DNA from: Candidatus Levyibacteriota bacterium | GTDB taxonomy: Bacteria; Patescibacteriota; Microgenomatia; Levybacterales; UBA12049 | Direction: 5' to 3' | Assembly (NCBI GenBank): GCA_016182425.1 | Contig: JACPGP010000016.1 | Coordinates: 9,353-73,352 of the forward strand | Length of the DNA stretch: 64,000 nucleotides | Part shown: positions 9,428-36,567 of the stretch, one piece after another | Position numbering within the stretch: the first letter of the stretch is position 1 | How the letters are laid out: each line of letters opens with the position of its first letter | Made by a program: the position numbers and the translations under genes | The notes under the pieces: model-generated | What the model saw: the letters and a program-made list of their open reading frames with translations, nothing else | Databases searched by the model: none | What the model was told of the DNA's origin: nothing

Positions 9428-9451
9428 ATAAATAGTGTAGCAAAAAGAGGG

Positions 9452-9537
9452 CGGAGAGGGTGGGATTCGAACCCACGTGAGCTTGCGCCCAATTGGTTTT
9501 CAAGACCAACGCCGTACGACCACTTGGCTACCTCTCC
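9452..9537 (-). tRNA. tRNA-Ser (anticodon UGA)
   Basis: Cloverleaf folded by hand. Acceptor is GGAGAGG/CCTCTCC, anticodon loop CTTGAAA, T-arm GTGGG-TTCGAAT-CCCAC, with a long variable arm. Confidence 0.9.
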
Positions 9538-9580
9538 AAGTGTTCCAAGTATAACAAATTGAGGCTAACACTACAAGAAA

Positions 9581-10006
9581 TTACAGCGAAGATAGCATCA
9601 AAACTTTTAGCTCTTTAACTACTTTAGTTTTCCGATCATTTGTGATAAAAACTTCAGCTTTTTCTTGAATAGCTGTTGCCAATTGAATAGCATCTGGCGT
9701 CCGAAATCCATATATTCTACGAATCTTTGCCGCTCCAACTGCAATTTTTTGATCTATATCAAGAATTGTTAGGTTAGGAATTGTAAGTACCTTTTTTACT
9801 ATATCTTTGGCTGCTTGATCAGAAAGTTTTTTTGAAGAAAGCATCTCAATAAGGGTTGTGATGCTGGTTATTGCTCGTAACTCATTTTCAGCTAAGGCGT
9901 CAAAAATCAATTTCGAAGCTGTTCCAAACTGTGAACTCTCATTAAAATAATAAATAAAAATATTGCTATCTAAAGCTACTTTTTTTAGATTACTTATCCC
10001 ACTCAT
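9581..10006 (-). CDS. vapC: PIN-domain toxin VapC
   Basis: LDSNIFIYYF...LIEML...PDAIQLATA...ITND shows the acidic PIN residues in the expected order. The gene overlaps the upstream antitoxin by 17 nt. Confidence 0.85.
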   Translation of the reverse strand: MSGISNLKKVALDSNIFIYYFNESSQFGTASKLIFDALAENELRAITSITTLIEMLSSKKLSDQAAKDIVKKVLTIPNLTILDIDQKIAVGAAKIRRIYGFRTPDAIQLATAIQEKAEVFITNDRKTKVVKELKVLMLSSL

Positions 10007-10232
10007 CTCTCATTTTTTCAACCTCTGCGATTGGATCTATTCCCTTCCAATATTTTTTAAGAGCGCCGTAATTCTCATCAGACCAGTTTTGTTTGCTTAC
10101 TTTTACTTCAAGCGTTTCCTCATCTATTGGATATACATGAACCTTATTTCCCGGCCTAATGGCCTTTAATTTTTTACGCACCTCTTTAGGAAGAACAATT
10201 TGATATTTTGACCCAATAGTTACTTGCTGCAT
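9990..10232 (-). CDS. vapB: AbrB/SpoVT-type antitoxin (VapB)
   Basis: VTIGSKYQIVLPKEVRKKLKAIRPGNKVHVYPIDEETLEVKV is a swapped-hairpin AbrB-like signature. Confidence 0.8.
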   Translation of the reverse strand: MQQVTIGSKYQIVLPKEVRKKLKAIRPGNKVHVYPIDEETLEVKVSKQNWSDENYGALKKYWKGIDPIAEVEKMRDEWDK

Positions 10233-10301
10233 GGTATGACGATTTTACTATTTTTTGTCATACTTGTCAAGTGGACAAAAAATCTCTATAATACCTTTTA
10301 G

Positions 10302-10385
10302 GGAGGGTGACTCAGACGGTAACGAGAATGGTTTGCTAAACCATGACCCGTAAGGGTCCAGTGGGTTCGACTCCCACACCCTCCG
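10302..10385 (+). tRNA. tRNA-Ser (anticodon GCU)
   Basis: Acceptor is GGAGGGT/ACCCTCC and the anticodon arm is ATGGT-TTGCTAA-ACCAT. The variable arm is GACCCGTAAGGGTCC and the T-arm GTGGG-TTCGACT-CCCAC. Confidence 0.85.
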
Positions 10386-10388
10386 CAG

Positions 10389-12638: not shown

Positions 12639-12658
12639 GGTATATATTATACTCTAGC

Positions 12659-12688
12659 TTGACTAGAGAAGAGTAATTCAGTTAGGAT
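12659..12688 (+). promoter_or_regulatory. Promoter placing the -10 box 6 nt from the ATG (leaderless type)
   Basis: TTGACT (12659-12664), an 18-nt spacer, TAGGAT (12683-12688), then 6 nt to ATG 12695. The divergent helicase has TATAAT (12651-12646, minus strand) 7 nt before its ATG at 12638. Confidence 0.5.
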
Positions 12689-12694
12689 AAAAGT

Positions 12695-13204
12695 ATGGAT
12701 CAGTCTCCCTTGCACGAGGTAAAAACGCTTCTTTCCTGGAAAGCGCCAGGCAGGCCGTTTCGAAAGAGAGGAAAAGAATACTATCTAAGCGTTTTTTTAA
12801 TTACAATTCTTATTGAAGTTATTCTCTTTCTTTTCTCTCAATATATGCTGATGATTGTTATCCTTTCTTTTGTGGTAATGGCATTTGCTCTAGTTACCGT
12901 TCCTCCACACAATTTTCAATACCGCATCAGCACCGAGGGCATTACCATTGAAGATCACTTTTATCTTTGGCAAGAACTCTACGATTTCTACTTTAAAAAG
13001 CGCGACGGCGTAGAAACATTGTATGTTCGAACACGAGCTTTTCCCGGAGAAATCATCATAAGCTTAGGGGATGTTAATCGGGAACATCTAAAATCTATCC
13101 TTCTACAATTCCTTCCTTATCGGGAAATTATTAAACCCACCTTTATGGAAAAATCTGCCGACTGGCTCTCGCGCAATTTTCCCCTTGAAAAGCGAACTTC
13201 ATAG
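12695..13204 (+). CDS. Hypothetical two-TM membrane protein
   Basis: 169-aa ORF with hydrophobic helices LSVFLITILIEVILFLF and MIVILSFVVMAFALV. No motif recognised. Confidence 0.5.
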   Translation: MDQSPLHEVKTLLSWKAPGRPFRKRGKEYYLSVFLITILIEVILFLFSQYMLMIVILSFVVMAFALVTVPPHNFQYRISTEGITIEDHFYLWQELYDFYFKKRDGVETLYVRTRAFPGEIIISLGDVNREHLKSILLQFLPYREIIKPTFMEKSADWLSRNFPLEKRTS

Positions 13205-13247
13205 AGATTTGGTATATCATACATATTCTTGTATAATAATTGCGATT

Positions 13248-13322
13248 GCACCCATAGCTCAACGGATAGAGTAGCGGCTTGCGGAGCCGTTGATCCCAGT
13301 TCGATTCTGGGTGGGTGCGCCA
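13248..13322 (+). tRNA. tRNA-Arg (anticodon GCG), CCA encoded
   Basis: Hand fold: GCACCCA-TA-GCTC-AACGGATA-GAGT-A-GCGGC-TTGCGGA-GCCGT-TGAT-CCCAG-TTCGATT-CTGGG-TGGGTGC-G-CCA. Confidence 0.85.
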
Positions 13323-13326
13323 AAAA

Positions 13327-13413
13327 GGAGGAGTGCAAGAGAGGCTTATTTGGCCGGTCTCGAAAACCGAGCGAGTCGCAAGATTCACAGAGGTTCGAAT
13401 CCTCTCTCCTCCG
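13327..13413 (+). tRNA. tRNA-Ser (anticodon CGA)
   Basis: Acceptor is GGAGGAG/CTCCTCC and the anticodon loop is CTCGAAA. The variable arm is GAGTC-GCAA-GATTC and the T-arm AGAGG-TTCGAAT-CCTCT. Confidence 0.85.
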
Positions 13414-13419
13414 CAATTA

Positions 13420-13491
13420 GTCCTCGTAGTTCAATGGATAAAACAAAAGCTTCCGGAGCTTTAGTTGCGGGTTCGACTCCCGCCGAGGACG
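13420..13491 (+). tRNA. tRNA-Arg (anticodon CCG)
   Basis: Acceptor is GTCCTCG/CGAGGAC, the anticodon arm AAAGC-TTCCGGA-GCTTT and the T-arm GCGGG-TTCGACT-CCCGC. Confidence 0.85.
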
Positions 13492-13494
13492 CTT

Positions 13495-13926
13495 ATGAAA
13501 TTTGAGTTTTCAGCTGGTGGCATAGTCCTTCGACAAGCTCAGGATAAAAAAATTGAGATACTTGTCGCGCAGCACTCGCAGCACCATGGCTGGGTTTTCC
13601 CAAAAGGCTTAATTGGTGACAGTGGCAAAAAAGAAACAAAAGAAGAAACAGCGGTAAGGGAAGTGCAGGAAGAAACAGGGGTATGGGCAAAAATTATAAA
13701 GCCATTAACGCCAATTTCATACTGGTACCAGTTTGAAGGTCAAAAAATTAAAAAAACCGTGTATTATTTTATTATGGAGTATGTCTCTGGCGATATAAAA
13801 GACCACGACTGGGAAATGGAAAATGTCGAATGGCTGCCAATTGAAGAAGTTGAAAAAAGGTTGACTTACTCGTCTGATAAACAAGTATGGCAAGAGGCAA
13901 AAAAGTTACTAGGAGAGGTCGCATAG
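13495..13926 (+). CDS. NUDIX hydrolase
   Basis: NUDIX box GWVFPKGLIGDSGKKETKEETAVREVQEETG. The start is taken at MKFEFSAGG (13495) because the track start at 13465 lies inside tRNA-Arg. Confidence 0.9.
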   Translation: MKFEFSAGGIVLRQAQDKKIEILVAQHSQHHGWVFPKGLIGDSGKKETKEETAVREVQEETGVWAKIIKPLTPISYWYQFEGQKIKKTVYYFIMEYVSGDIKDHDWEMENVEWLPIEEVEKRLTYSSDKQVWQEAKKLLGEVA

Positions 13927-13999
13927 TTGGTCTAGTGCGCAGCTTTGGAAAAGCTGTATATCCGCAAGGATATCGGGAGTTCGAATCTCCCCCTCTCCG
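13912..13999 (+). tRNA. tRNA-Ser (anticodon GGA)
   Basis: Acceptor is GGAGAGG/CCTCTCC, the anticodon arm CAGCT-TTGGAAA-AGCTG and the T-arm GGGAG-TTCGAAT-CTCCC. The first 15 nt overlap the NUDIX 3' end. Confidence 0.85.
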
Positions 14000-14076
14000 C
14001 AGCGTAAGAAATTTTTTAAAATTTCAACAAATCTAATAAATGGGTGTTCCGATGGAAGGTTTGGTAAAATAATTCT

Positions 14077-20100: not shown

Positions 20101-20758
20101 GTATCCTTGGTGCTTCTCCACTCATGGGGAAAATGCCGTGTTCAATCATCATCTGCTGGGTTCTTCTCTCGTCAAGGGATAAGGTTTTCCCTTTATTTAC
20201 CTCTTCCCAAGCCTTTCTGAGCGGATCGTTTTCTTGTGATATACCCCCGAGAAGTTTTATGTAGAAACGAAGTGCCTCGTCGCCTATTTTTTCGTACAAC
20301 TCATCAACCAAAAAATATTCATACTCTCGTACTAAATCCCTTAGTCCCTTATCAGCTCCTTCTCTATGAAGCTCGTAGCCAAGAACAAACATCTCTTCTG
20401 CCGCTTTTTTAAGCTCGCCTTCATTCCAACTCTCAATTGGTTTCTCTTTTGCTTTCTTTTGAAAGGCCTCTATTTTTGCTCTTTGCTGACTGTTTGCTTC
20501 CTCTAAAATCTCTTTCTGCTGCAATCTGCTACCGATAAATTCTTTCCTCTGTTTTTTGGCGGCTGCTTCTTTCTTACTTCGTTCTTCTTGTTTTTCTTCT
20601 TCTGTTTGTGGCTTTCCGCCTTTTTTACCTGCGGCAGGTATTTGATGTGATTTGAGTATTTCTGGACTTGCTACTGTACCATCTGGCATAAAAATACCTC
20701 CATCTCCATGGTACGCGGTTCGTGGTTGTATTGTCAATCGAACTTCCTGCTCTTTCAT
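17150..20758 (-). CDS. Very large (1202 aa) Glu/Arg/Gln-rich coiled-coil protein with a single C-terminal TM helix; function unknown
   Basis: The ORF is uninterrupted and has no N-terminal signal. The C-terminus reads LGLAMSRSLIPMLIAAFIYMML. It is GC-richer than its surroundings (58% in the line at 18961). Confidence 0.7.
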   Translation of the reverse strand: MKEQEVRLTIQPRTAYHGDGGIFMPDGTVASPEILKSHQIPAAGKKGGKPQTEEEKQEERSKKEAAAKKQRKEFIGSRLQQKEILEEANSQQRAKIEAFQKKAKEKPIESWNEGELKKAAEEMFVLGYELHREGADKGLRDLVREYEYFLVDELYEKIGDEALRFYIKLLGGISQENDPLRKAWEEVNKGKTLSLDERRTQQMMIEHGIFPMSGEAPRIPETGITDFQLRLQERTANRLLEDIPDGNFQEQLQILEELRRSVSSLTGVDQAQQEQLLERVTERLVVVRRQIREEETARQAEQERREGGDRRRREADQRMGRNELPQELTYFKSQTLADFDLEQNTYTGGVRDIADRLSRELTSPNTDLRTETEVNSSRLNEYIDELSRIAGGADEQAAQAQKLLSKAQWLKEALRSQMDTDSSILHPGLYGEIRMGRDQQKQLIDNVLAADPDAAEGTEGWRKWQEVEKEFSRLFKYADVDSDHEWREAIGPGGDMEIRDFHNVLARAAENKILPSGNLLTPDQQEKVRRIERMLNREQTLREYLHTITYYVNRNFGAEDIIKAASRFAGEEAHIAFSKRGTASMLRLYEQAMLEVVAKNGGYLPARAMVNNPDGTYGEVEQLVLDMATKAKAMGVLPKDMDEWEIKRAISLARGMGIVTARFFEIAAMHGITKNVPLNSWWANGLVKNIAFFEQIVRFDVGGRQNAILGYKLEGNRGPWSTEELKRFKAMSSSEILDILVNDRGDDVLGQMKNPFHIGSIFTQTGWRWKGDKVTLASATARLLQYDENNPLIGVGLLIEAKRGELVGDDKNKAQQAEQVIRSAIGVAEKTTPLKFFNNLISLRQGVLRKHYKDQIKEEADSPGQIIITSKELQHDLAALALVQERLLRRRIDAYKKYLDSDELRNFNERLREFNERLARGEVKEKDRPQPKPPEQIENLHFPTGLENQDFALLKTAAVGTEEYRHQQEQEERVKALAEHIRGEFKEKHMDKLMHNLEHKGWKVPFIFGTDDMPHEAFDYAAITGDTIKRRWDADIGPVVATAGLYGKFIQNLTEYKSQGDIVKAMKEMHSTLSGHDKDVASEAMRYLAEGVAKFYKKDWVGRLPLGIGKFHGFVSGDASYAQVAFGRGQMAWDELDIQAFLHEVHAAGIVNEHQYEKLKKRLGAEWYHLGLAMSRSLIPMLIAAFIYMMLNEQLEQLKKAA

Positions 20759-20800
20759 ATGTACAGCAGTTTAGGGCAAATGGTATTGGACTACTTGATA

Positions 20801-20829
20801 TTTACATTACAAACACCTTACAGTATGAT
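20801..20829 (+). promoter_or_regulatory. Promoter overlapped by 11-bp-phased TTACA(A/G) repeats
   Basis: TTTACA (20801-20806), a 17-nt spacer, TATGAT (20824-20829), then 9 nt to ATG 20839. TTACAA, TTACAG and TTACAA start at 20807, 20818 and 20829. Confidence 0.45.
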
Positions 20830-20838
20830 TACAAAGCT

Positions 20839-22023
20839 ATGGAGCGATTCGAAGCATCTTTTCCCGCAGGCTACAGAAAAGATGACATTGCCAAAATTTG
20901 TGGCTTTGTTTTACAGGGCAAATTCTGTCAACTTGTTTGTCCTCCAGGAGGCGGCAAGGCAACGCTTTTGAAATTACTTGCTAATAACCAAAATGTCAGA
21001 AATTACCATTTGGGAAAGCAGGCAGAAACGACATATTTTTTATACCTAAATCTTCTTGAACTCTCTGATTTTACCGAAAGCAGTATCTATAAATTTCTTC
21101 TCTTATCTTTAAGTCGGATGCAGGGAAAAACACTTGATGCTACCTCATTACCATCAGATCCAGTTATACTGTTACAATTACTTAAAGACAGCATTGACGC
21201 AATTACCAATCAGGAAAAAAGGACCCCTGTGTTACTTCTTGACCATTTTGATGAATATCAAAACCATCTCTCCCGTTCTTTTTTCCAGATGCTGCGGAGT
21301 CTTAAAAGCTTAGCAAAGTATCGTTTTTCCGTTGTCTTTGCCACCCGTCGAGACTTAAAAGACTTAGTTGACCCAGAAATATTGAAAGAATTTTATGATT
21401 TTTTTGTCGATAACACTGTGTACATGAAACTATCCGATCCTGTAGCATCTTCTTTTATGTTCGAGAAAATTGAAAAAATTACCGAAAAAAAGTTAAGGCA
21501 AAAAGAAAAAGATGATCTTCTTACGTTAACAGGAGGACATGCAAAACTTCTTAAAGTATGTACAGAAACTGTTTTGCAAGAACAGACAAAAATAACTCTC
21601 GAAGATCTTCTTAAAAAACCGCTTGTCCGTGCAGCATTATTTGAGCTTTGGTACTTTGATAAGAAAATAATCATACCTCTGTTTAGCGCATTTGTTAAAC
21701 AGCTATCAGCAACGGCAAAAGAAGAACATCTTTCTTTCAATGAACAAACAAAAGAAATTATGAAAGGCACAACAGCAATATCGGATCTTTTTTCTCCACA
21801 AGAGTTCCGATTGCTCAAGTTCTTACTCGAAAATAAAGATCGAATTATCGAACGAGAAGAAATTATTGCAACTGTCTGGAGAGATGCAAAAACAACTGCA
21901 GGAGTTACCGAACAAGCCCTAGATCAGCTTATTTTCCGCCTTCGCCACAAAATCGAAGATTATCCAAATAATCCTGGACATCTGCAAACAATAAAGGGCC
22001 GAGGGTTTCGTTTTACCACTTGA
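20839..22023 (+). CDS. P-loop NTPase fused to a C-terminal OmpR/PhoB-type winged-helix DNA-binding domain
   Basis: Walker A is CPPGGGKAT and Walker B-like is VLLLDHFDE. The C-terminus (EREEIIATVWRD...LDQLIFRLRHKIE...IKGRGFRF) is the trans_reg_C pattern. The start is at MERFEAS, because 20722 would overlap the divergent gene. Confidence 0.75.
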   Translation: MERFEASFPAGYRKDDIAKICGFVLQGKFCQLVCPPGGGKATLLKLLANNQNVRNYHLGKQAETTYFLYLNLLELSDFTESSIYKFLLLSLSRMQGKTLDATSLPSDPVILLQLLKDSIDAITNQEKRTPVLLLDHFDEYQNHLSRSFFQMLRSLKSLAKYRFSVVFATRRDLKDLVDPEILKEFYDFFVDNTVYMKLSDPVASSFMFEKIEKITEKKLRQKEKDDLLTLTGGHAKLLKVCTETVLQEQTKITLEDLLKKPLVRAALFELWYFDKKIIIPLFSAFVKQLSATAKEEHLSFNEQTKEIMKGTTAISDLFSPQEFRLLKFLLENKDRIIEREEIIATVWRDAKTTAGVTEQALDQLIFRLRHKIEDYPNNPGHLQTIKGRGFRFTT

Positions 22024-22048
22024 CAGTTTTGTATATTTTGGCTAAAAT
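22020..22048 (+). promoter_or_regulatory. Promoter of the phd-vapC cassette (leaderless type)
   Basis: TTGACA (22020-22025), a 17-nt spacer, TAAAAT (22043-22048), then 7 nt to ATG 22056. Confidence 0.55.
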
Positions 22049-22055
22049 GTATAAT

Positions 22056-22316
22056 ATGAACAATATATCCATTTCTGCCAGCGATCTTAAAAAACATATT
22101 TCTGATGTTCTCAATGACGTCTACTTTCACAAAAAAGTAGCTGTTATAGAACGCTACGGCAAGCCTATAGCCGAAATTGTACCTATAGAAAAAGGTGAAA
22201 CAAAATCATCCAATATTCAAAAGGCCTTAGATGCAACCTTTGGTATTCTACCCGATTTTCCTGACGTAACAAAGTACAGAAGGTCTCGAAAGAAAAAATT
22301 TGTTTTATCTTTATGA
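22056..22316 (+). CDS. Phd/YefM-type antitoxin
   Basis: ISASDLKKHISDVLNDVYFHKKVAVIERYGKPIAEIVPIE. It overlaps vapC by 4 nt (ATGA). Confidence 0.85.
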   Translation: MNNISISASDLKKHISDVLNDVYFHKKVAVIERYGKPIAEIVPIEKGETKSSNIQKALDATFGILPDFPDVTKYRRSRKKKFVLSL

Positions 22317-22699
22317 AATATCTTCTTGACACCGATATTGTCATTAATCATTTAAGAAAAAGGGTGATGATTAACAAAGCAGTGTTGGAAAGCGGGGCGG
22401 CAATTAGTATTATTACCTTAGGAGAACTTCTCTACGGAGCAGAAAAATCAGATAATCCAGAAACGTCAGTAACGATATTAGAAAAAAGTCTAAACATTTT
22501 AGGATTGGAGTTAGTAAATCTTAGTAAGAATATTATGGTAGAATTTGCCAAAATAAAGACCGTGCTTGAAAAAAATGGTATAAGATTGGAAGATTTTGAT
22601 TTACTTATCGCAGCGACTGCTAAAGCTAACTCGCTAACCTTAGTTACAAAAAACCTACACCACTTTACCAGAGTCCCAAACTTACAGATTATCAACTAA
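22313..22699 (+). CDS. vapC: PIN-domain toxin VapC
   Basis: MKYLLDTDIVINHL...LGELLYGAEKS...DLLIAATAKANSLTLVTKN. Confidence 0.9.
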   Translation: MKYLLDTDIVINHLRKRVMINKAVLESGAAISIITLGELLYGAEKSDNPETSVTILEKSLNILGLELVNLSKNIMVEFAKIKTVLEKNGIRLEDFDLLIAATAKANSLTLVTKNLHHFTRVPNLQIIN

Positions 22700-27160: not shown

Positions 27161-27514
27161 TTAGATTTGTCCTCCTGTTTGCTTTGTTACATCTCCTGCA
27201 GTCTGTATTGCTTCTTCTATTTTATTTTCTTTTATAAGGGTTGAGACCTGGTCAATAACTTGTTTTTCGTTTTCCTCTTTAACCCCACCATGTTCTGCTA
27301 TTAAAATCTGAGAGAACATTGGCCACTTTTTAGATAAATCCGAAAGAAAATCCACAAGTTCAGCATTGCTTTTTGTATTGTCTATATTATCTAAAATGTA
27401 AGAGCAAATTGTGGATAGTTCGTTTTCGTTTATTTCCTGATTCTTGAAGGCCTCAATGACCCGTCTCATTACGCGCTCGCCGATTTTATTTTTGTATGCT
27501 TCATCTGGGCCCAT
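27161..27514 (-). CDS. Hypothetical small acidic protein
   Basis: 117-aa ORF whose stop lies 1 nt upstream of the start of the 626-aa gene, which suggests an operon. No motif recognised. Confidence 0.5.
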   Translation of the reverse strand: MGPDEAYKNKIGERVMRRVIEAFKNQEINENELSTICSYILDNIDNTKSNAELVDFLSDLSKKWPMFSQILIAEHGGVKEENEKQVIDQVSTLIKENKIEEAIQTAGDVTKQTGGQI

Positions 27515-27575
27515 ACCTTAAATTGAAACACACTCAAAAACTAAATGCAAGCACTAACCTTCTTAAGAGATACTA

Positions 27576-27614
27576 CTTTTCCCAAAAAACTCTGATTTTG
27601 TACCCTGTTTGACC
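27576..27614. repeat. Left copy of the 39-nt direct repeat flanking the doc cassette
   Basis: cttttcCcaaaaaactctgattttgtAccctgtttgacc. It differs at 2 positions from the copy at 28325-28363. Confidence 0.85.
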
Positions 27615-28009
27615 TACTTTCTTTTTCTGGTGTGGGTTTTAAGCCATTTGGCGATTTCTTCGATAGCTAAATGCTTATTCTCAACACGAAGCGGAAAATC
27701 GATAAACTCCTTTTTATCTACTTTGAATTCGTATCCATTTATGTAAAGAAATCGAGCGGTTGTGGTGATAGACGTGCGTTTGTTTCCATCTGTAAACGCA
27801 TGATTGAAAATAAGCGAATGGAAAAGCGCGGCAGCTTTATCAAGAATTGTTGGATAAAGATCTTCTCCGCCAAATGACGCCTGTGGTCGAGCAAGCGCTG
27901 ACTGAATCAACCCTAAATCTCTTATACCATGACTCCCTCCATATCGCTCTACCATATCGTCATGAATGGCTAAAACAACATCTAAAGTGATATAAATAAT
28001 CCCTTTCAT
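27614..28009 (-). CDS. doc: Doc (death-on-curing) Fic-fold toxin
   Basis: HSLIFNHAFTDGNKRTS is the Doc-type HxFx(D)GNKR motif. The gene overlaps the antitoxin by 4 nt. Confidence 0.9.
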   Translation of the reverse strand: MKGIIYITLDVVLAIHDDMVERYGGSHGIRDLGLIQSALARPQASFGGEDLYPTILDKAAALFHSLIFNHAFTDGNKRTSITTTARFLYINGYEFKVDKKEFIDFPLRVENKHLAIEEIAKWLKTHTRKRK

Positions 28010-28266
28010 TTTTTGGCTAACTCTTTTAACGCATCTTTATATCGCGCGTTAAATCCCTTGAGCCATTTTAAGAATTCCGGCGTAAGAGAGCCCTTTACTA
28101 TTTTAGATTCTACTGGCACAACTGTAAGTGTTTCGGTATCAAAATCTTCATCTACTCTAACTTTCTGTCCTGGTTTTATCCCTATCTCGTCGGCAAATCC
28201 CCGCGGTATGGTTACAGCATATGAATTCCCAACTTGAATTACTTTTTGTAACATAGAACTTTTCAC
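28006..28266 (-). CDS. AbrB/MazE-fold antitoxin partner of Doc
   Basis: VIQVGNSYAVTIPRGFADEIGIKPGQKVRV. Confidence 0.85.
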   Translation of the reverse strand: MKSSMLQKVIQVGNSYAVTIPRGFADEIGIKPGQKVRVDEDFDTETLTVVPVESKIVKGSLTPEFLKWLKGFNARYKDALKELAKK

Positions 28267-28324
28267 CTCCCTTTATTTTGGTTATAACAATATTATAACA
28301 AAGCTGTTGTTCTGTCAATATCGA

Positions 28325-28363
28325 CTTTTCACAAAAAACTCTGATTTTGTCCCCTGTTTGACC
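28325..28363. repeat. Right copy of the 39-nt direct repeat, followed by a palindrome and a re-duplicated GTTTGACCTA
   Basis: cttttcAcaaaaaactctgattttgtCccctgtttgacc is followed by the palindrome CCCAGCTgAGCTGGG. GTTTGACCTAT then appears at 28376-28386. Confidence 0.85.
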
Positions 28364-28396
28364 CAGCTGAGCTGGGTTTGACCTATTTTGATGATC

Positions 28397-28425
28397 TTGA
28401 ATTCGGATTTTTCACATTATATAAA
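28397..28425 (+). promoter_or_regulatory. Promoter of the prgI-virB4 operon (leaderless type)
   Basis: TTGAAT (28397-28402), a 17-nt spacer, TATAAA (28420-28425), then 7 nt to ATG 28433. Confidence 0.5.
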
Positions 28426-28432
28426 GAAAGTA

Positions 28433-29371
28433 ATGGAAAATCACCCTATCCCACAAGATGTAACCGGGTTTCAGTTTAAGTTAATTGGCAACATGACCAT
28501 CAAACAATTTGCCTACCTGGCAACAGGCATTGTTTTGGCTTGGGTTGTGTATGCCTTACCCTTAAGCCGGTTAATAACATTTCCTCTGGCTTTGATCCTT
28601 GGATTCTTGGGATTTGCGTTGGCCTTTCTCCCTATTGACGGCAGGCCAATGGATGCTATGGTAGCATACTTTATCAAGGCGCTCTTTACTCCCAATCAGT
28701 ATGTTTTTCAAAAAACCGCTCTCCAATCTGCTAATACATCGGCTATTCGCGTATTGCTTTCTACGCCCAAACCAGATCAGGCTCCAAAAGAAAACCTGCC
28801 GAAAGAAGAAAAACAACTCCAAACCAAAACAGAACAAACGGCGCCGCCCGAGCCCCAAACTGAAGAAAGCATCACTAGAAGTCAGTATGAATCTGTTATG
28901 GAGGCGCTTGGTCTTGCTAAAGCAGAAAAAGAACGGCTCGAGCAACAAATCCTAGTGCTTAAAGAAGCCCTGGCAAAAACCCAACAGCAAACAACAGCAG
29001 CACCACCGCCTACTGTCAAAAAAATTCCTGTAAAAACCTCACCGGCCACTCGGGGACTGCTTGTTTCCGATGCTCCCAACGTCCTTTCGGGCATTGTAAA
29101 AGATCCTAGAGGAAATGTATTATCAAACATCCTAGTTGAGGTCAAAGATAAAGACGGAAATCCTGTACGGGCTTTCAAAACTAACGCATTTGGTCAGTTT
29201 GCCTCTGCTACGCCGCTTCTTAATGGTGTTTATACACTTGAGTTCGACGATTCGCAAGGAAAGCAAAAATTCGATGCCGCCGAGCTTACCATAACAGGCG
29301 AGATTATTAACCCAATTGAAGTGACAAGTATCGATCAACGAGAAGAACTGCGAAAAACGTTATTTGGATAA
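28433..29371 (+). CDS. PrgI/VirB3-like T4SS membrane protein fused to a carboxypeptidase-regulatory-like beta-sandwich
   Basis: IPQDVTGFQFKLIGNMTIKQFAYLATGIVLAWVVYALPL...FLPIDGRPMDAMVAYFIKALFTP matches the PrgI pattern. The C-terminus reads GIVKDPRGNVLSNILVEVKDKDGNPVRAFKTNAFGQF...GVYTLEF. Confidence 0.65.
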   Translation: MENHPIPQDVTGFQFKLIGNMTIKQFAYLATGIVLAWVVYALPLSRLITFPLALILGFLGFALAFLPIDGRPMDAMVAYFIKALFTPNQYVFQKTALQSANTSAIRVLLSTPKPDQAPKENLPKEEKQLQTKTEQTAPPEPQTEESITRSQYESVMEALGLAKAEKERLEQQILVLKEALAKTQQQTTAAPPPTVKKIPVKTSPATRGLLVSDAPNVLSGIVKDPRGNVLSNILVEVKDKDGNPVRAFKTNAFGQFASATPLLNGVYTLEFDDSQGKQKFDAAELTITGEIINPIEVTSIDQREELRKTLFG

Positions 29372-29386
29372 TAACCATAAATTGCT

Positions 29387-31726
29387 ATGAACACTGCCCG
29401 AAGCATTTCAGCATCAACGCAGAAGTTTACCGAAATACAAGACATACGAGAAAACATTGTTTTACAAACAAGGGGAAACTCATGTTTGATAATCGAAGTG
29501 ACAGCCACCAATTTTTCCCTTCTTTCGCAAGAAGAGCAAGAGGCAAAAATCTTTTCATACGCATCGCTCCTAAACTCTCTCTCCTTCCCTATCCAAATCT
29601 TAATCCGCAATAAGCGCGTCGACATCTCTTCTTACACTAAAAAGTTAGATGAAAATCTGGCAAAACTGGCTCAAGAACAGCCCTCTCACCAGAAAAAAAT
29701 TTCTTACATTCAAAACTACCGATCTTTCGTGCAAGAACTAATTAAAGTAAATACGGTTTTGGACAAAACATTTTATATTATAATCTCTTTCTCTTCCTTG
29801 GAAAGCGGCATAGGCGGCGTGGTGATAAAAAAAGACGATTTTTTCCTCCAGGCCAAAGCAGGACTTCGTACCAAAGCGGAGTCTATTTTAAGCCAGCTGG
29901 GCCGGCTGGGACTTCGCAGTAAAATCCTGGATAAAGAACAGCTTATGCAACTTTTCTACAACATATACAACGATGGGTATGCTGGGGCATTGGCTTTTGA
30001 AACGCCGAATTCTTCCGTGGTTGATCTTATAGCGCCGCCTTCTGTTGAGATTGACTTTCGCTCCGTTCGTGTTGGCACAAAAACCGCTCGCACATTTTTT
30101 ATTGTCGGCTATCCACGTTTTGTTTCCGCGAATTGGCTAGCGCCCTTAGTCGATTTCGACCACGAACTCGATATTTCCTTTTTTATTTATCCCGCGTCAT
30201 CTCCAGACATTCTCTCGGATCTTCGGCGCAAAATCGCCGAGATGGAAGCAACCATCTCATCGCAAGCACAAGCTGGACAAGTTATTGACCCAACGGTAAC
30301 AGCAACCCTTGAGGATGCGCTGGGACTGCAGGAAGAACTGGCTAAGGGAGTTGAACGATTTTTTCTCTTCAGTCTTTATATAACGATATCTGCCGAAAAT
30401 CAAGCCGATCTTGAAAGCTCGGTAAAACGCCTCACAGCTACCATGGCCAGTCTTTTGCTTATAGCCAAACCAGCCACACTGCAAATGGAAGAGGGATATA
30501 AGGCCACTCTTCCATTGGGACAAGACAAGCTTTTTATGACCCGCAATATGGATACGACTTCTCTTGCTTCGATGTTTCCTTTTACCTCGGCCATGCTCAC
30601 GCAGGATAAAGGTACTCTCTACGGCATTAATCAGCAGAATAGTTCTCTTGTTATCTTCGATCGCTTTTCTCTGGAGAATGCCAACGAGGTTGTTTTTGGC
30701 AAGTCGGGCTCTGGCAAATCCTACTGCATTAAGCTGGAGATTCTGCGTCAGTTTATGCTTGGCACCGAGATAATTGTAATTGACCCTGAAGGAGAGTACG
30801 AAACCATTGCTCAAGCCTTAGGCGGCGAATATCTTAATTTTACGCCCTCCTCCCCGATTAAAATTAATCCTTTTGATCTTTCCGGGCTTTATGAAGAGGG
30901 CGAAAACGAGCTGGGACTAAAAATACTTTCTCTCCATGCGCTGTTAAAAATTGTTTTAGGAGAACTGGACGCTTCACACGACGCAATTTTAGATCGCGCG
31001 CTGGTGCAAACCTATCAACAAAAAGGTATTACCCATGATCCTAGCACCCAGAAAAATGAGCCGCCTCTTATGGAAGATCTCTACAAAGTACTTCTGGGCA
31101 TGGAGGACGCGGCAGCTTCGGAACTAGCTCTTCGCCTGGAAAAGTTTATCAAGGGAAGTTTAAGCGGTATTTTTAATCAGCAGTCAAACATCAACCTTGA
31201 CAATCCACTAACCGTCTTCTCCGTTAAACAACTCGAAGATCAGCTGCGGCCAATTGCCATGCACATTATTTTAGATTTTGTCTGGATCAGGATCCGAAAA
31301 ACTCTCAAAAGGCGGCTTTTGGTGTTGGATGAAGCATGGTATATGATGAAGTACGAAGACAGCGCATCCTTTGTCTATGGGATTGCCAAACGCGCCCGTA
31401 AATACTATTTAGGCTTAACAACCGCTACCCAGGACGTTGAGGATTTCCTCTCCACCGATTATGGAAAAGCTGTTTTATCTAATTCCTCACTGCAAATTTT
31501 ACTTAAGCAGGGAACATCAGAAATCGACATTGTCAGTAAAATCTTTTATCTTTCTTCGGGAGAAAAACAATTGCTTCTGGCAGCAAATATTGGTGAAGGG
31601 CTTTTTTTCGCCGGACAAAATCATGTGGCCATGAAGGTGGTAGCAGCGCCATTTGAACACCAACTCATTACCTCAAACCCGCAGGAAATTCTACAAAAAC
31701 AGCAAAATATACCACCAGCAGGATAA
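29387..31726 (+). CDS. virB4: VirB4/TraC/PrgJ-class T4SS ATPase
   Basis: Walker A is VVFGKSGSGKSY and Walker B is RRLLVLDEAWYMM. Size (779 aa) and the position after the prgI-like gene also fit. Confidence 0.9.
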   Translation: MNTARSISASTQKFTEIQDIRENIVLQTRGNSCLIIEVTATNFSLLSQEEQEAKIFSYASLLNSLSFPIQILIRNKRVDISSYTKKLDENLAKLAQEQPSHQKKISYIQNYRSFVQELIKVNTVLDKTFYIIISFSSLESGIGGVVIKKDDFFLQAKAGLRTKAESILSQLGRLGLRSKILDKEQLMQLFYNIYNDGYAGALAFETPNSSVVDLIAPPSVEIDFRSVRVGTKTARTFFIVGYPRFVSANWLAPLVDFDHELDISFFIYPASSPDILSDLRRKIAEMEATISSQAQAGQVIDPTVTATLEDALGLQEELAKGVERFFLFSLYITISAENQADLESSVKRLTATMASLLLIAKPATLQMEEGYKATLPLGQDKLFMTRNMDTTSLASMFPFTSAMLTQDKGTLYGINQQNSSLVIFDRFSLENANEVVFGKSGSGKSYCIKLEILRQFMLGTEIIVIDPEGEYETIAQALGGEYLNFTPSSPIKINPFDLSGLYEEGENELGLKILSLHALLKIVLGELDASHDAILDRALVQTYQQKGITHDPSTQKNEPPLMEDLYKVLLGMEDAAASELALRLEKFIKGSLSGIFNQQSNINLDNPLTVFSVKQLEDQLRPIAMHIILDFVWIRIRKTLKRRLLVLDEAWYMMKYEDSASFVYGIAKRARKYYLGLTTATQDVEDFLSTDYGKAVLSNSSLQILLKQGTSEIDIVSKIFYLSSGEKQLLLAANIGEGLFFAGQNHVAMKVVAAPFEHQLITSNPQEILQKQQNIPPAG

Positions 31727-33409: not shown

Positions 33410-33880
33410 ATGTTTAATATTATGTTTAAAAAAATAAGCATTATTACTTTTCTCTCTACCGTTAGTATTTTATTTATAATCGTGCTCTTTAATTACTTTA
33501 CAAAAAAAACAATTAATCAACCGCCACTTTTGCAGAATCCAACCCCTACAACTTTTATTCCTATAAACACAACTCCCTCTATTGAGGATCAATTAAAAAT
33601 TCAAACACAGAGTGACAAGAAGTTTTCTGATTGGCAAAAAGACATTTATAAAAATTATCCGTGGTATAATAGTCTTCCTCTTCAAACAGATAATTATTTT
33701 GTTTATTTTGATTTAGATGAAAAAAAATTTATTGCATACCTATATCCTAAAACATCCTCCAAAGCTTCTCTTGAGGAACAAGTTATCTCTTTCAAAAATG
33801 AAATAATTACACAATTGGGCGTGCTAGGTGCTGATAGCTCTAAATATATTTTTCAATGGATTATTCAGTCTGAACCCTAA
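33410..33880 (+). CDS. Small N-terminally anchored protein (VirB8-position candidate)
   Basis: A TM helix ISIITFLSTVSILFIIVLF is followed by a ~120-aa ectodomain. It overlaps the dnaN 3' end convergently by 20 nt. No motif recognised. Confidence 0.45.
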   Translation: MFNIMFKKISIITFLSTVSILFIIVLFNYFTKKTINQPPLLQNPTPTTFIPINTTPSIEDQLKIQTQSDKKFSDWQKDIYKNYPWYNSLPLQTDNYFVYFDLDEKKFIAYLYPKTSSKASLEEQVISFKNEIITQLGVLGADSSKYIFQWIIQSEP

Positions 33881-34979
33881 TTGGCATGATGAGGTGGAGA
33901 AAGGAGGAATCTCCTTTAATCTTAAATACCCCGGGGCTCGTTGCTGTCGTCATTTCAAATACCAAATCTTGCTCCTCTATATTGGCAAACAGATCAAGAA
34001 GGTAACGCGCGTTAAACGCAATATCATTATCCTCCCCTGTTATTTTTGCTTCAACCTCCACTGTATTTTCTCCTGTTTGGGGAGCGTTTGCAGATACCAC
34101 AATACTATCTTTTTTCAACGAAAGCCTCACAATATTTGCCGATTCCCTGGCAAAAATAGCGCACATTTTAACCGCTTTCTCCATTTCGGTCTTATCAAAA
34201 ATTGCTTTAGTGAGTATATCTTGTGGGATGATTTTCTCATACTCTGGAAATTGCGCCTCAAGAAGCCTCCCTACAATTATCGTATCTCCCTGCTCGAATA
34301 ACACCTGGTTTGTTTTCTCTATCACAAACATTTTTACCAATGTATCTTCGTTATTTTTTACCATGGCTGCTTCTCGTAGCGCTCGGGCGCTGACTAACAG
34401 CGGCTTTTCCAGACTAAAAGGAATTTGATTATATATCAAAGAAAGTCTATATCCATCAGTAGCAACAAGATAAAATTTTTTACCTAAACTTTCTTCTTCT
34501 CTTTTTATATAAATCCCAGACAGGGCAGGACGTGAAGTATCGATGCTGGCGGAAAAAAGTACATGTAAAAGTGTTTTTTGAAACAGGTCTTTTTTTATCT
34601 CTCCCACTCTTTCTCCTTTTTCTTCATATAATTTTGGAAATTCGTCTGATGATATTGTTTGAAAAACGCTTTTGGTATGTTTTGTGGTAATAATAATATT
34701 TTTATCATTTGTCTCTATTAATATTTTTTCCTGGGGTAAAGTGTTTATAAGCTCTGAGAATGATTTTGCGGGGATTGTTGTTTCTCCTTCCTCTTCTATG
34801 TTGGCTGTTATTTTAATGTCAATACCTATTTCTAAATCAGTAGCGCTTATTTTTAATTTTCCATTCCTTGCTTGGAAAAAAATATTTTGTAGTACTGGAA
34901 GCTGGGAATGTGATGATATTGCTTTATTAACAAAAGGAAGCGTTTTTTGTAAATATTCAGATAAGACATATAGTTTCAT
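33861..34979 (-). CDS. dnaN: DNA polymerase III beta sliding clamp
   Basis: LQKTLPFVNKAISSHSQLPVLQNIFFQARNGKLKISATDLEIGI. Size is 372 aa and the gene lies downstream of dnaA. Confidence 0.95.
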   Translation of the reverse strand: MKLYVLSEYLQKTLPFVNKAISSHSQLPVLQNIFFQARNGKLKISATDLEIGIDIKITANIEEEGETTIPAKSFSELINTLPQEKILIETNDKNIIITTKHTKSVFQTISSDEFPKLYEEKGERVGEIKKDLFQKTLLHVLFSASIDTSRPALSGIYIKREEESLGKKFYLVATDGYRLSLIYNQIPFSLEKPLLVSARALREAAMVKNNEDTLVKMFVIEKTNQVLFEQGDTIIVGRLLEAQFPEYEKIIPQDILTKAIFDKTEMEKAVKMCAIFARESANIVRLSLKKDSIVVSANAPQTGENTVEVEAKITGEDNDIAFNARYLLDLFANIEEQDLVFEMTTATSPGVFKIKGDSSFLHLIMPIRVQTE

Positions 34980-35022
34980 ACAATATATTATTCTTTAGTA
35001 GTTTTAGTAGTGTAATAGGAAA

Positions 35023-35065
35023 AGTGGAAAAAAGCAAGAAGAAGAAGGTAGAAAAATGTGGAAAA
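35023..35065. promoter_or_regulatory. DnaA-box-like pair in the dnaA-dnaN spacer (oriC candidate)
   Basis: AGTGGAAAA (35023-35031) matches the TGTGGATAA consensus at 7/9 and TGTGGAAAA (35057-35065) at 8/9. An AT tract tatattttaaaaaaaggttgattttttt follows. Confidence 0.5.
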
Positions 35066-35130
35066 CCAGTTGATAAACATGGGTATATGTTGTTTATATT
35101 TTAAAAAAAGGTTGATTTTTTTAAAGTTAT

Positions 35131-36501
35131 TCATAATGTAATATTGGTTATCCCCATAATTTCCAGAGAAAGATTATTGTTTTTTGTATTTGGTAAAGAT
35201 AATAATTTATCTATTTTTTCAACACCATGCATAATGGTAGTATGATCTCTGCCCCCCAAGACATTTCCTATCTCAACCAAAGGTAATCCAAGCTCCTTTT
35301 TAAGAAGAAACATTGCTATATGTCTTGCTTTTACCAGACGTGAATCACGTTTGGGGCCTTTTATTTGGGTCGATTTTATGTTGTAATAGGAGCAGACCTT
35401 ATTTATTATGTCATCTGGATGACGGTGTTCTTCTGTGCTTCCCCTCTGGTGTTTTAAGATTTTCGCGGCGAATTGTTCGGTGATTTCCTCACTTTTTGTT
35501 TTTGCCTCCGTGATAACTCTTAAAAGCGCCCCTTCCAGACTTCTGGTGTCCAACGAGTTTTGGGCGATGAGTCTTGCTACATCAATCGGCAATTCTATTT
35601 CGTATTTCACCGCTTTGATTAAAAGAATGGCTGTTCTAAGCTCAAAATCTGGTGGCTCAATATCAACAGTAAGCCCAGAGGAAAAACGAGAGGAGAGACG
35701 CCTCTCCAGTTTTTTTATCTCATTGGGAGGGCGATCAGAAGAAAGCACCACCTGCGAGGCATTATCGATTAGGATGTTAAATGTATGAAACAATTCTTCC
35801 TGAATTTTATCTTTTCCCGCAATAAACTGCACATCATCAATTATTAAAAGATCAACTGTTCGAAATCTCCTTTTCATCCTGGCAGTATCATTTGAACGTA
35901 TTGCTCCCACAACATCATTGGTAAATTCCTCGCTGGTAATGTAGATGATTTTTTTATCAGGGTATTTTTCGTACACCTCATTTGCTATTGCCTGCATGAG
36001 ATGGGTTTTGCCAACACCGGTCGGTCCATAAATAAATAGCGGATTATAGGACCGACCTATATTTTTAGCCACTGTTTGCGCTGAAACAAAAGCCAGTTGA
36101 TTACTGGAAGAGACAGCCATTGTTTGGAATCGGAATTCCGGGCGAACACGAGACAAAGATTTGGAAAATGGAGTTTTAAGGAGAGAGTCTTTGGAAATTA
36201 AACTATCCGAAAACAACGGCTCCTCCTTTTTTTCAATGTTTTTTTCAGGCAACGTTTTGGCTATAAACACAAGCAGATAATCTTTACCGGTATGTTTTTT
36301 TAATATCTTTTTAATAACGTCCGAAAATCGCTTCTTAAGCAAATCAATACCAATTGATGAGTGAGCTGCGATTGTTGCCACATTATTTTCCAGCGACACC
36401 AGCGCTGTTTTTTTAAAGAAGGTAAGAAAGTGCGCTTTTGATACTTCTGTTTCGACTTCTCCAAGCGCGGTTTTCCAAAGCTCATCAACATCTGTCCTCA
36501 T
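35131..36501 (-). CDS. dnaA: Chromosomal replication initiator DnaA
   Basis: Carries GPTGVGKTHLMQAI and box VII/VIII-like regions. The C-terminal HTH reads ...RDHTTIMHGVEKI. Start MRTDVDELW (36501) is preferred because the track start at 36555 would put a perfect DnaA box inside the CDS. Confidence 0.93.
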   Translation of the reverse strand: MRTDVDELWKTALGEVETEVSKAHFLTFFKKTALVSLENNVATIAAHSSIGIDLLKKRFSDVIKKILKKHTGKDYLLVFIAKTLPEKNIEKKEEPLFSDSLISKDSLLKTPFSKSLSRVRPEFRFQTMAVSSSNQLAFVSAQTVAKNIGRSYNPLFIYGPTGVGKTHLMQAIANEVYEKYPDKKIIYITSEEFTNDVVGAIRSNDTARMKRRFRTVDLLIIDDVQFIAGKDKIQEELFHTFNILIDNASQVVLSSDRPPNEIKKLERRLSSRFSSGLTVDIEPPDFELRTAILLIKAVKYEIELPIDVARLIAQNSLDTRSLEGALLRVITEAKTKSEEITEQFAAKILKHQRGSTEEHRHPDDIINKVCSYYNIKSTQIKGPKRDSRLVKARHIAMFLLKKELGLPLVEIGNVLGGRDHTTIMHGVEKIDKLLSLPNTKNNNLSLEIMGITNITL

Positions 36502-36528
36502 ACATTTTATGTATGAAGACTTTACTAA

Positions 36529-36567
36529 TGTGGATAACTTTTTGTCAAGAAGCATAAAATGGATAAA
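36529..36567. promoter_or_regulatory. DnaA boxes upstream of dnaA (oriC/autoregulation candidate)
   Basis: TGTGGATAA (36529-36537) is a perfect complement of TTATCCACA. ATGGATAAA (36559-36567) is a 7/9 match. Confidence 0.55.

Follow-up and report, generated by a model that had tools for sequence, protein, structure and literature searches.

Repeated promoter sequence around a Doc toxin-antitoxin cassette points to insertion with long target duplication upstream of a prgI-virB4 operon in Levybacteria

How chromosomal toxin-antitoxin (TA) pairs move without a mobility gene is a long-standing gap, and their mobility is usually inferred from patchy distribution. In a 64,000-nt stretch of DNA from a Candidatus Levyibacteriota bacterium (the whole stretch analysed, hereafter the window), a Doc TA cassette stands between two near-identical direct repeats in front of a T4SS-like operon for PrgI and VirB4, which raises the question of how the cassette came to lie there and where the repeats come from. 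The features that bear on this question are the following.

27161-27514, minus strand: 117-aa gene, function not assigned; the native left neighbour
27575-27620, plus strand: left copy of the PrgI promoter-distal segment, read here as the duplicate (40-nt core and TACTTT)
27614-28009, minus strand: doc toxin gene, 131 aa, Fic/DOC (PF02661, E = 2.1e-19)
28006-28254, minus strand: MazE/AbrB (SpoVT)-type antitoxin gene, 82 aa (PF04014)
28282-28318, minus strand: TA promoter, with -35 TTGACA at 28318-28313, a 17-nt spacer and -10 TAATAT ending at 28290
28324-28363, resuming at 28384-28389, plus strand: right copy, read here as the native one, with the distal TTTTCAC box at one end and the GTTTGACC box at the other
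28364-28383, plus strand: 20-nt unit CAGCTGAGCTGGGTTTGACC, a 12-nt palindromic core CAGCTGAGCTGG and a second GTTTGACC, interrupting the right copy
28384-28425, plus strand: rest of the PrgI-VirB4 promoter, with a TATTTTGAT box, -35 TTGAAT at 28397-28402 and -10 TATAAA at 28420-28425
28433-29371, plus strand: prgI, 312 aa, PrgI and CarboxypepD_reg domains; first gene of the operon
29387-31726, plus strand: virB4/traC-like ATPase gene, 779 aa; the anchor for the comparative loci

By its domains, motif and operon layout the cassette is classed as an ordinary Doc type II TA pair. The Doc motif, HAFTDGNKR, is intact and fits HxFx(D/N)(A/G)N(K/G)R; among 46 homologues its H, F, D, G, N, K and R were invariant and its A was present in at least 90%. 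The antitoxin gene comes first in the operon, starting at the ATG at 28254 behind a GGAGGTG ribosome-binding site (an 86-aa form from the GTG at 28266 was also called), and doc overlaps the antitoxin stop by 4 nt. Two TTGTTATAA direct repeats at 28282-28290 and 28293-28301, in the TA promoter region, are a likely operator, and the same architecture (TTGACA-17-TAATAT with TTGTTATAA repeats) was found repeatedly in cassettes of the Doc family. The -35 element of this promoter lies only 5 nt from the right repeat copy. The insert as a whole measures 709 nt (27615-28323) and holds doc, abrB and their own promoter and operator, and nothing else. It sits in core chromosome, with dnaA, dnaN and yidC 5-9 kb to its right; on its left, the 117-aa gene had just two homologues, both distant and both on short contigs.

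An earlier note on this DNA had reported a direct repeat matching at 37 of 39 positions and bracketing the doc-antitoxin operon exactly. Both observations held, and the repeat proved longer: 27575-27614 and 28324-28363 match at 38 of 40 positions (95%) with a spacing of 749 nt, and the doc stop codon (27614-27616) lies in the left copy, overlapping the last base of the 40-nt core. The similarity resumes past the 20-nt unit, where TACTTT at 27615-27620 faces TATTTT at 28384-28389, so that the full repeat comprises 46 nt with 43 matches once that unit is set aside. The palindrome CCCAGCTGAGCTGGG to the right of the repeat and the further GTTTGACCTA (28376-28385), which the note had also described at the right copy, were likewise present. 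The unit CAGCTGAGCTGGGTTTGACC was found in the right copy and not in the left, and was therefore inserted after the duplication; similar units occur at L026, L065 and L069, three of the comparative loci described below. The left copy has a mutated box, TTTTCCC in place of TTTTCAC. In a search that allowed up to 3 mismatches, the 39-mer occurred at two sites in the 64-kb window and at none in 100 shuffles, and the pair was the sole direct repeat of at least 22 nt and >82% identity within 4 kb found anywhere in the window. The 40-mer folds no better than shuffled sequence (z = -1.0), and Rfam returned only a chance match for it. Ten distinct Logan contigs (L011 repeats L001), retrieved with the exact 117-aa and Doc proteins, were 100% identical to the window, and 6 of the 10 cover the cassette in whole or in part; with this agreement among independent contigs, the arrangement is not a misassembly. 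In Logan, contigs end near the cassette at positions that a graph branch at the repeat would not explain.

The origin of the two copies emerged from a comparison with 52 VirB4-anchored loci from species-representative genomes and five nearer relatives obtained through PrgI. Upstream of prgI, Levybacteria have a common architecture, in which a distal TTTTCAC(A/G) box is followed by a variable spacer of ~25 nt, by TTTGACCYAYTTTGAT and by a core promoter in the order CTTGMA (-35), a second TTTTTCAC box and TAYAMW (-10). In the window this proximal TTTTTCAC box occupies 28408-28415, between the -35 and -10 elements. The promoter that the earlier note had placed at 28397-28425 is borne out by more than 20 related loci in which TTGMA-N17-TAYAMW is conserved together with the TTTTTCAC box inside it, while a strict sigma-70 scan made no call there. 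Within this native region, the stretch bounded by the distal box and the TTTGACC box corresponds exactly to the right copy. By this correspondence the right copy is evidently native promoter-distal sequence and the left copy its apparent duplicate. The note's placement of the cassette upstream of the prgI-virB4 promoter thus stands, but not its description of the landing site as spacer, since the right copy is native promoter sequence and the spacer was not neutral. A generic promoter or intergenic repeat was considered and rejected, as the boxes occur at this one site only within the window.

Related genomes that lack the cassette carry the segment once, and these are empty sites of the kind the note had proposed to look for, all of them in other species. 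A single copy lies between homologues of the 117-aa and 626-aa genes and prgI in L022, L025, L038 and L145, and beside other left neighbours in L144 and L149/L150; more distant loci (L052, L034, L056 and others) are also single-copy. The five nearest relatives (L144, L145, L146, L147 and L149, VirB4 78-84% identical in amino acids) all lack the cassette, and four of them (L144, L145, L146 and L149) have the single copy, L147 being uninformative. The left copy stands ~60 nt from the start of the 117-aa gene, and the single copy of L022 ~52 nt from the start of the homologue. The single copy and these distances in L022 indicate that the left copy with the left flank, and the right copy with the core promoter, are the halves of one intergenic region. 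No empty site or excision product from the same species was found in the Logan contigs, all contigs of this population there carrying the cassette, and the best PrgI homologue was just 58% identical. The distribution of the cassette among Levybacteria is patchy.

The same cassette is present at the same insertion point in a second species (L012; CP066685.1, a single-record chromosome of 762,565 bp), whose VirB4 is 79% identical in amino acids to that of the window and whose Doc and antitoxin are 94% and 87% identical. Its repeat, homologous to that of the window, comprises 44 nt with 39 matches at a spacing of 752 nt and, the 20-nt unit being absent, continues without a break through the doc stop codon. 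A block of ~92% nucleotide identity between the two genomes extends from precisely the outer boundary of the left copy to the -10 element of the prgI promoter; their left neighbours are unrelated, and in L012 the left copy adjoins the 3' end of a convergent gene. At fourfold-degenerate sites the identity between the two was 84.6% for doc and 69% for abrB but 43.6% for virB4, and since the cassette is so much more alike than virB4 at these sites, it was exchanged recently. The suggestion that the cassette behaves as a small mobile unit is well supported by this excess of similarity over the flanking genes, whereas the note's further idea, that it could stabilise or regulate the T4SS locus, is speculative.

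The repeats tell a different history from the cassette. Their identity is 74-76% when the window is compared with L012 but 95% within the window and 89% within L012, and the central spacer of both copies is genome-specific (AACTCTGA in the window, ATTCCCAA in L012). The single copy at the empty site of L149 is ~90% identical to the L012 version. The repeats, unlike the cassette, thus look host-derived, judging from these identities. Transfer of the cassette together with both repeats as one block was rejected, because the repeats have diverged much more between the genomes than the cassette has. In both genomes the TTTTCAC box of the left copy has lost its A.

In approximately 40 Levybacteria prgI promoters the sequence upstream was scanned for a second copy of the promoter's own distal region, and five (the window among them) were found to have a TA cassette between duplicated promoter sequence, as listed here with the spacing of the copies.

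Window: spacing 749; Doc and MazE-AbrB
L012: spacing 752; Doc and MazE-AbrB
L053: spacing 735; Doc 55% identical, with a MazE-type antitoxin; a deep separate lineage
L026: spacing 1076; a 91-aa gene and AbiEii, on the same strand as prgI
L029: spacing 840; DUF6922 and AbiEii

Three of the five are Doc/MazE cassettes and two are of AbiE type, the latter in the opposite orientation; the upstream copy in L026 and L029 includes promoter elements that would drive the cassette. The prgI promoter is therefore a recurrent hotspot, with five cassettes of two TA families. The earlier note had also allowed that its 39-mer might prove to be a common intergenic repeat unrelated to TA cassettes; in the window the boxes are confined to this promoter, and elsewhere the segment flanks TA cassettes in L012, L053, L026 and L029. 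At four further loci (L065, L068, L069 and L070) Doc cassettes abut the distal box with no left copy, and an AbiEii gene adjoins doc in L065 and L068. L069 has the same gene order as the window, no left copy and no space for a decayed one. The Doc cassettes at the prgI promoter (the L053 lineage apart) belong to a single clade, and of its members only a sister pair, the window and L012, have the left copy. The copies of L053 and L029 are perfect over 21 and 16 nt, respectively, and ~70% identical elsewhere, a pattern that in L053 has P ~0.01 under uniform decay and that looks like the product of hybrid recombination sites or of selection on the boxes.

Flanking repeats are not confined to this promoter. 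In a survey of 80 metagenomic Doc loci, 39 had full flanks, and the sequence upstream of the antitoxin was compared with that downstream of doc. A direct repeat scoring at least 15 was found in 6 of the 39, whereas none of 192 control placements, equal in geometry but shifted along the same loci, reached that score (control maximum 14; Fisher p ~2e-5). These repeats measure 15-68 nt, their sequences are unrelated between most sites, and the DNA between them (690-778 nt) has imprecise ends: the insert starts anywhere from 2 nt inside the cassette -35 element (L097, where the repeat overlaps the TTGAC match) to 24 nt upstream of it, and ends from 1 nt before to 80 nt after the doc stop. The targets include coding sequence. 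In L119 a membrane-protein gene supplies the repeat with its first 68 nt, of which the copy upstream is a 27-codon stump and the one downstream opens an ORF still open after 117 codons in the stretch translated; in L090 and L092 it is the 3' end of a PBP2 gene, and in L092 four copies separate three inserted segments. The repeats of L076 are nested, which suggests, from their arrangement, that an older flank travelled with the cassette. The flanking repeats of the family are thus target-derived.

No Pfam match to an integrase or transposase was found in sixteen of the larger ORFs (at least 142 aa) between 14 and 46 kb or in the seven ORFs beside the cassette. An insertion sequence or transposon was rejected for want of a transposase and of terminal inverted repeats, and the family repeats of 15-68 nt are not short and of fixed length; a 20-nt inverted pair (27615-27634 and 28413-28432, 80%) extends past the right copy into the conserved promoter and was attributed to chance. 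A candidate recombinase site, ACAAAA-N8-TTTTGT, was set aside, since relatives conserve TTTTCAC alone and the arms measure 5-6 bp. No similar DNA was found in plasmid or phage collections that might identify a transfer vehicle, and viral contigs yielded only Doc relatives of 28-36% identity.

The arrangement comes closest to one described for restriction-modification (RM) genes as "insertion with long target duplication" (Nobusato et al. 2000, Gene 259:99; Furuta, Abe and Kobayashi 2010, NAR 38:2428, PMC2853133). In those cases RM genes with no mobility gene are flanked by direct repeats >30 bp that are single-copy in empty genomes (PMC2853133). The repeats measured 46 bp in two H. influenzae cases and more in others, and often span a gene start, a gene stop or a regulatory region, the target staying intact (PMC2853133). 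Most cases come from naturally competent bacteria; the authors described the mechanism as unknown and proposed DNA breakage by the RM system as the cause (PMC2853133). A 2013 review credits this behaviour to RM systems and reports none for TA systems (PMC3874152), and our literature search, which was not exhaustive, found no report of long target duplication for TA cassettes or for CPR bacteria.

In the window, the insert is under 20 kb and consists of an addiction module alone with no linked mobility gene among the ORFs scanned; it is flanked by a direct repeat >30 bp (40 nt with 38 matches, or 46 nt with 43), otherwise unique within the 64 kb; and the segment is single-copy at the same place in insert-free genomes, here of other species (VirB4 at most 84% identical in amino acids). 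As in the RM cases, the cassette is a small addiction unit with no mobility gene, the repeat spans a gene stop (that of doc) and a regulatory region, and repeat length and sequence vary between Doc insertion sites. Doc is a kinase that acts on the translation factor EF-Tu and cuts no DNA. The Doc cargo, unlike an RM system, therefore brings no DNA-cutting activity, which argues that the mechanism belongs to the host and not to the element. Two further differences are that one promoter segment has been used repeatedly, by two TA families and with the same segment duplicated, so that the process looks more targeted, and that the empty sites of the window come from other species and not from conspecific strains.

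Against this background we consider it probable that a self-contained TA cassette was inserted upstream of the PrgI-VirB4 operon with duplication of ~46 nt of target, and that it was moved by the host. The segment duplicated by the insertion would have the distal TTTTCAC box at one end and the TTTGACCTAYTTT box at the other. Of its two copies, the right one would have stayed joined to the core promoter, so that prgI-virB4 would keep its whole upstream region; the left one would have stayed at its native distance from the divergent 117-aa gene and would now supply the doc stop codon. With no recombinase gene of its own and no inverted ends, the cassette must depend on host functions for its movement. 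We infer that a linear cassette joined the target at two offset points, which could be the two sides of a staggered break that was then filled in, or two short-homology joints made in crossed order. A 7-nt match between the 3' end of doc (AAAGTAG) and the TTTGACCTACTTT box, together with the conserved ACTTTTCACAAAAA at the other junction, could fix the same boundaries in independent insertions. Once flanked by copies of a conserved promoter, the cassette may spread among Levybacteria by recombination after DNA uptake, and its addictive TA function would favour retention. On this basis the earlier note's alternative of a site-specific or duplicative insertion can be divided: the duplicative part is supported, by the empty sites among other things, while there is no evidence for a dedicated site-specific recombinase.

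Several observations count against duplication at insertion. The empty sites are all in other species; the copies of L053 and L029 combine a perfect core with diverged arms; in the Doc clade at this promoter only the window and L012 have the left copy; and the same ~46-nt segment surrounds unrelated cassettes in four species (the window, L012, L053 and L029), which a random staggered break would not predict. This last observation favours the strongest competing explanation, in which the segment is an attachment site, circular cassettes bearing a copy integrate by a single reciprocal crossover, catalysed by RecA acting on short homology or by a tyrosine or serine recombinase encoded elsewhere, and the repeats are attL/attR hybrids. 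This explanation, which we judge unlikely, draws further strength from the occurrence of the segment around cassettes in both orientations, from the perfect core and diverged arms of L053 and L029, from tandem accretion between copies of one target (the four copies of L092, and AbiE with Doc in L065/L068) and from the nested repeats of L076, which suggest that cassettes carry old flanks. The Doc sites do resemble elements that carry the 3' end of a target tRNA or protein gene between attL and attR in their target-restoring direct repeats of 15-60 nt, as well as in the accretion and the core-and-arms pattern just mentioned. They differ from such elements, however, in having no integrase in or near them, a length of only 0.7 kb and many unrelated targets. 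An integrative element with a linked integrase was rejected on the first and last of these grounds: no recombinase gene lies within ~15 kb among the ORFs scanned, and the repeats at other Doc sites are unrelated and of 15-68 nt, so that there is no common att core. The imprecise cassette ends also speak against a defined crossover. Moreover, the central sequence is that of the host genome in each of the two copies, in the window as in L012, which a single crossover with a foreign copy would not produce, and a crossover gives no account of how a cassette first gains the target sequence.

A related comparison is with integron gene cassettes and the pdif modules of Acinetobacter, small TA or resistance modules that encode no recombinase and depend on one supplied in trans. 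Like these cassettes of one or two genes, often a TA pair, the window cassette has no recombinase of its own and has short repeated bounding sites, and Doc-family cassettes, like integron cassettes, can accumulate in tandem (L092; L065/L068). Unlike them, it has no attC-like imperfect palindrome, no IntI and no XerC/D-type 11-6-11 sites, and Doc flanks are direct copies of the local target that differ from site to site. Membership in either class was rejected because the flanks in the window are direct copies of the local promoter with no significant fold and no IntI- or Xer-like gene is nearby among the ORFs scanned, the sites having been assessed by inspection. As to the cargo, the cassette resembles Phd/Doc of the phage P1 family in its Fic/DOC motif, its two overlapping genes with the antitoxin first and its repeated operator-like sites; unlike Phd/Doc of P1, it has an antitoxin of MazE/AbrB (SpoVT) and not Phd type, and it is chromosomal, in a CPR genome, and by its flanks a discrete movable unit of 0.7 kb.

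A further explanation reverses the order of events: the Doc cassette would be an old resident, and the left copy a later local duplication or conversion kept as a regulatory site, serving the divergent operon of the 117-aa and 626-aa genes or a regulator that needs two sites. Several observations agree with it. The Doc cassettes at the promoter are monophyletic with a left copy only in the window and L012, L069 has the same gene order without one, the distance between the left copy and the start of the 117-aa gene (~60 nt) is the native one seen in L022, and the copies are more alike within than between genomes, as co-evolution with one regulator would give. Yet the left copy of L012 lies against the 3' end of a convergent gene, a place that needs no promoter; both left copies have a mutated TTTTCAC box; the five nearest VirB4 relatives lack the cassette, four of the five being single-copy; the flanking-repeat pattern recurs at unrelated targets, coding sequence included; and no simple mutational path would put a copy exactly on the far side of the cassette. 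We regard this order of events as quite improbable. Chance similarity or an assembly artefact has a negligible probability: the window does come from a metagenome-assembled genome (MAG), and misassembly can yield short repeats, but shuffling gave zero matches in 100 trials, independent assemblies of several sequencing runs show the identical arrangement, and a homologous one occurs in the single-record chromosome CP066685.1.

Returning to duplication at insertion, each of two routes fits part of the evidence. Duplication by offset joints and fill-in would account for the host-specific repeats and the unrelated targets, whereas a crossover between cassette-borne and host copies would account for the recurring segment, the tandem accretion and the perfect-core pattern. 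We think that offset-joint duplication creates these structures and that crossover spreads them among Levybacteria, the evidence being split between the routes. The duplication may also postdate the first arrival of a cassette at the prgI promoter, since only the window and L012 of the clade have the left copy and L069 has none.

What is new here, as far as the sequences indicate, would be the extension of insertion with long target duplication from RM genes to TA cassettes in CPR bacteria. For the question of how such pairs move, the junctions at this locus are readable: a 0.7-kb unit, a duplicated target, empty sites, a second species and a family-wide excess of repeats. A bolder proposal, which we find doubtful but state for its consequences, is that TA cassettes of CPR bacteria home to the ~46-nt segment of a T4SS- or DNA-uptake-like promoter, cycle by host recombination and spread after DNA uptake. 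If so, recombination between the flanking copies would keep both alike within each genome, the promoter would be a dedicated landing pad for addiction modules, and insertion with long target duplication would need no DNA cutting encoded by the element. The prgI promoter offers a concrete system for surveying such insertions in metagenomes.

Units composed of TTT(T)GAYC followed by a 12-13-nt palindrome occur within the prgI promoter's TTTGACC box in the window, in the AbiE-type locus L026, and in L065 and L069, two loci with a Doc cassette at the prgI promoter and no left repeat copy.

Palindromic units in the prgI promoter
Window, 28356-28389: one unit
L026, 5581-5640 and 6630-6716 (two copies of the promoter segment): two and three units, respectively
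L065, upstream of prgI: one unit
L069, upstream of prgI: one unit

In every case the palindrome starts with ACC and ends with GGT, and a T run follows. The inner 5 nt vary with perfect compensation (ACCCAGCT/AGCTGGGT, ACCAAGTC/GACTTGGT, ACCGCGTC/GACGCGGT), and the unit in the window folds with a z of -3.5. These units may act as small terminators or be the footprints of insertions.

A gene for a 23S-rRNA-intervening-sequence protein (PF05635) lies between the prgI promoter and prgI in several species and is a further small insert at this promoter.

PF05635 genes at the prgI promoter
L012 (CP066685.1, with the same Doc cassette at the same point as the window), 6470-6975: domain confirmed here
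L146 (a near relative without the cassette): domain taken from an existing record

Judged by sequence resemblance, L017, L037, L029, L044, L053 and L147 probably also carry the gene at this position. Inverted GCGTATAG/CTATACGC repeats flank either the PF05635 gene or the prgI start in L012 and L147.

Repeats also surround some metagenomic Doc cassettes at other targets. A PBP2 3' end is present in four copies at L092 (258-304, 975-1006, 1213-1259 and 2697-2738), with three segments between them.

Segments between the PBP2 3'-end copies of L092
Doc toxin-antitoxin cassette
215 nt with a long palindrome
About 1.4 kb with a PaaX/Cas2-like gene

This arrangement looks like inserts accreted in tandem at one target; at the orthologous site, L090, the toxin-antitoxin cassette alone is present. 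The repeats of L076 (1124-1175 and 1885-1955) are nested as R1-R2-cassette-R2-R1, as though the duplicated flank of a previous insertion site had moved along with the cassette to a new site. The motif TTTCTAAGGCAGAAGAATTAA is common to the flanking repeats of L072, L073 and L097/L101, loci that are otherwise different, and may represent either a shared target or a dispersed element; CTTCGACTTCGCTCAGGAC is also common to the repeats of L072 and L073.

Within the T4SS-like locus of the window there is a second toxin-antitoxin pair, with a regulator gene on one side and the T4SS pilin genes on the other, and a search of the window detected no direct repeats flanking it.

Regulator gene and second toxin-antitoxin pair
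Window 20722-22023: Trans_reg_C + AAA ATPase gene, same locus as prgI-virB4
Window about 22040-22699, plus strand: PhdYeFM-like antitoxin and PIN toxin (22313-22699)

The locus adjoins dnaN and dnaA of the chromosomal origin region (33861-36555), and a six-tRNA gene cluster lies about 14 kb to the left (9449-14000); the locus is core chromosome and does not itself look like an integrative element.

A comparison of window 28324-28425 with about 25 related loci shows strong conservation of the prgI-virB4 promoter region across Levybacteria; the region contains two TTTTCAC boxes, one distal and the other between -35 and -10. The A of TTTTCAC is gone from the left, non-promoter repeat copy in both the window (27582) and L012 (5642) by separate substitutions, to C and to G, respectively; by our estimate the chance of coincidence is about 0.2, so this shared loss alone is not significant. 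The conservation of the promoter region, together with its two boxes, suggests that prgI-virB4 is served by a dedicated regulator.
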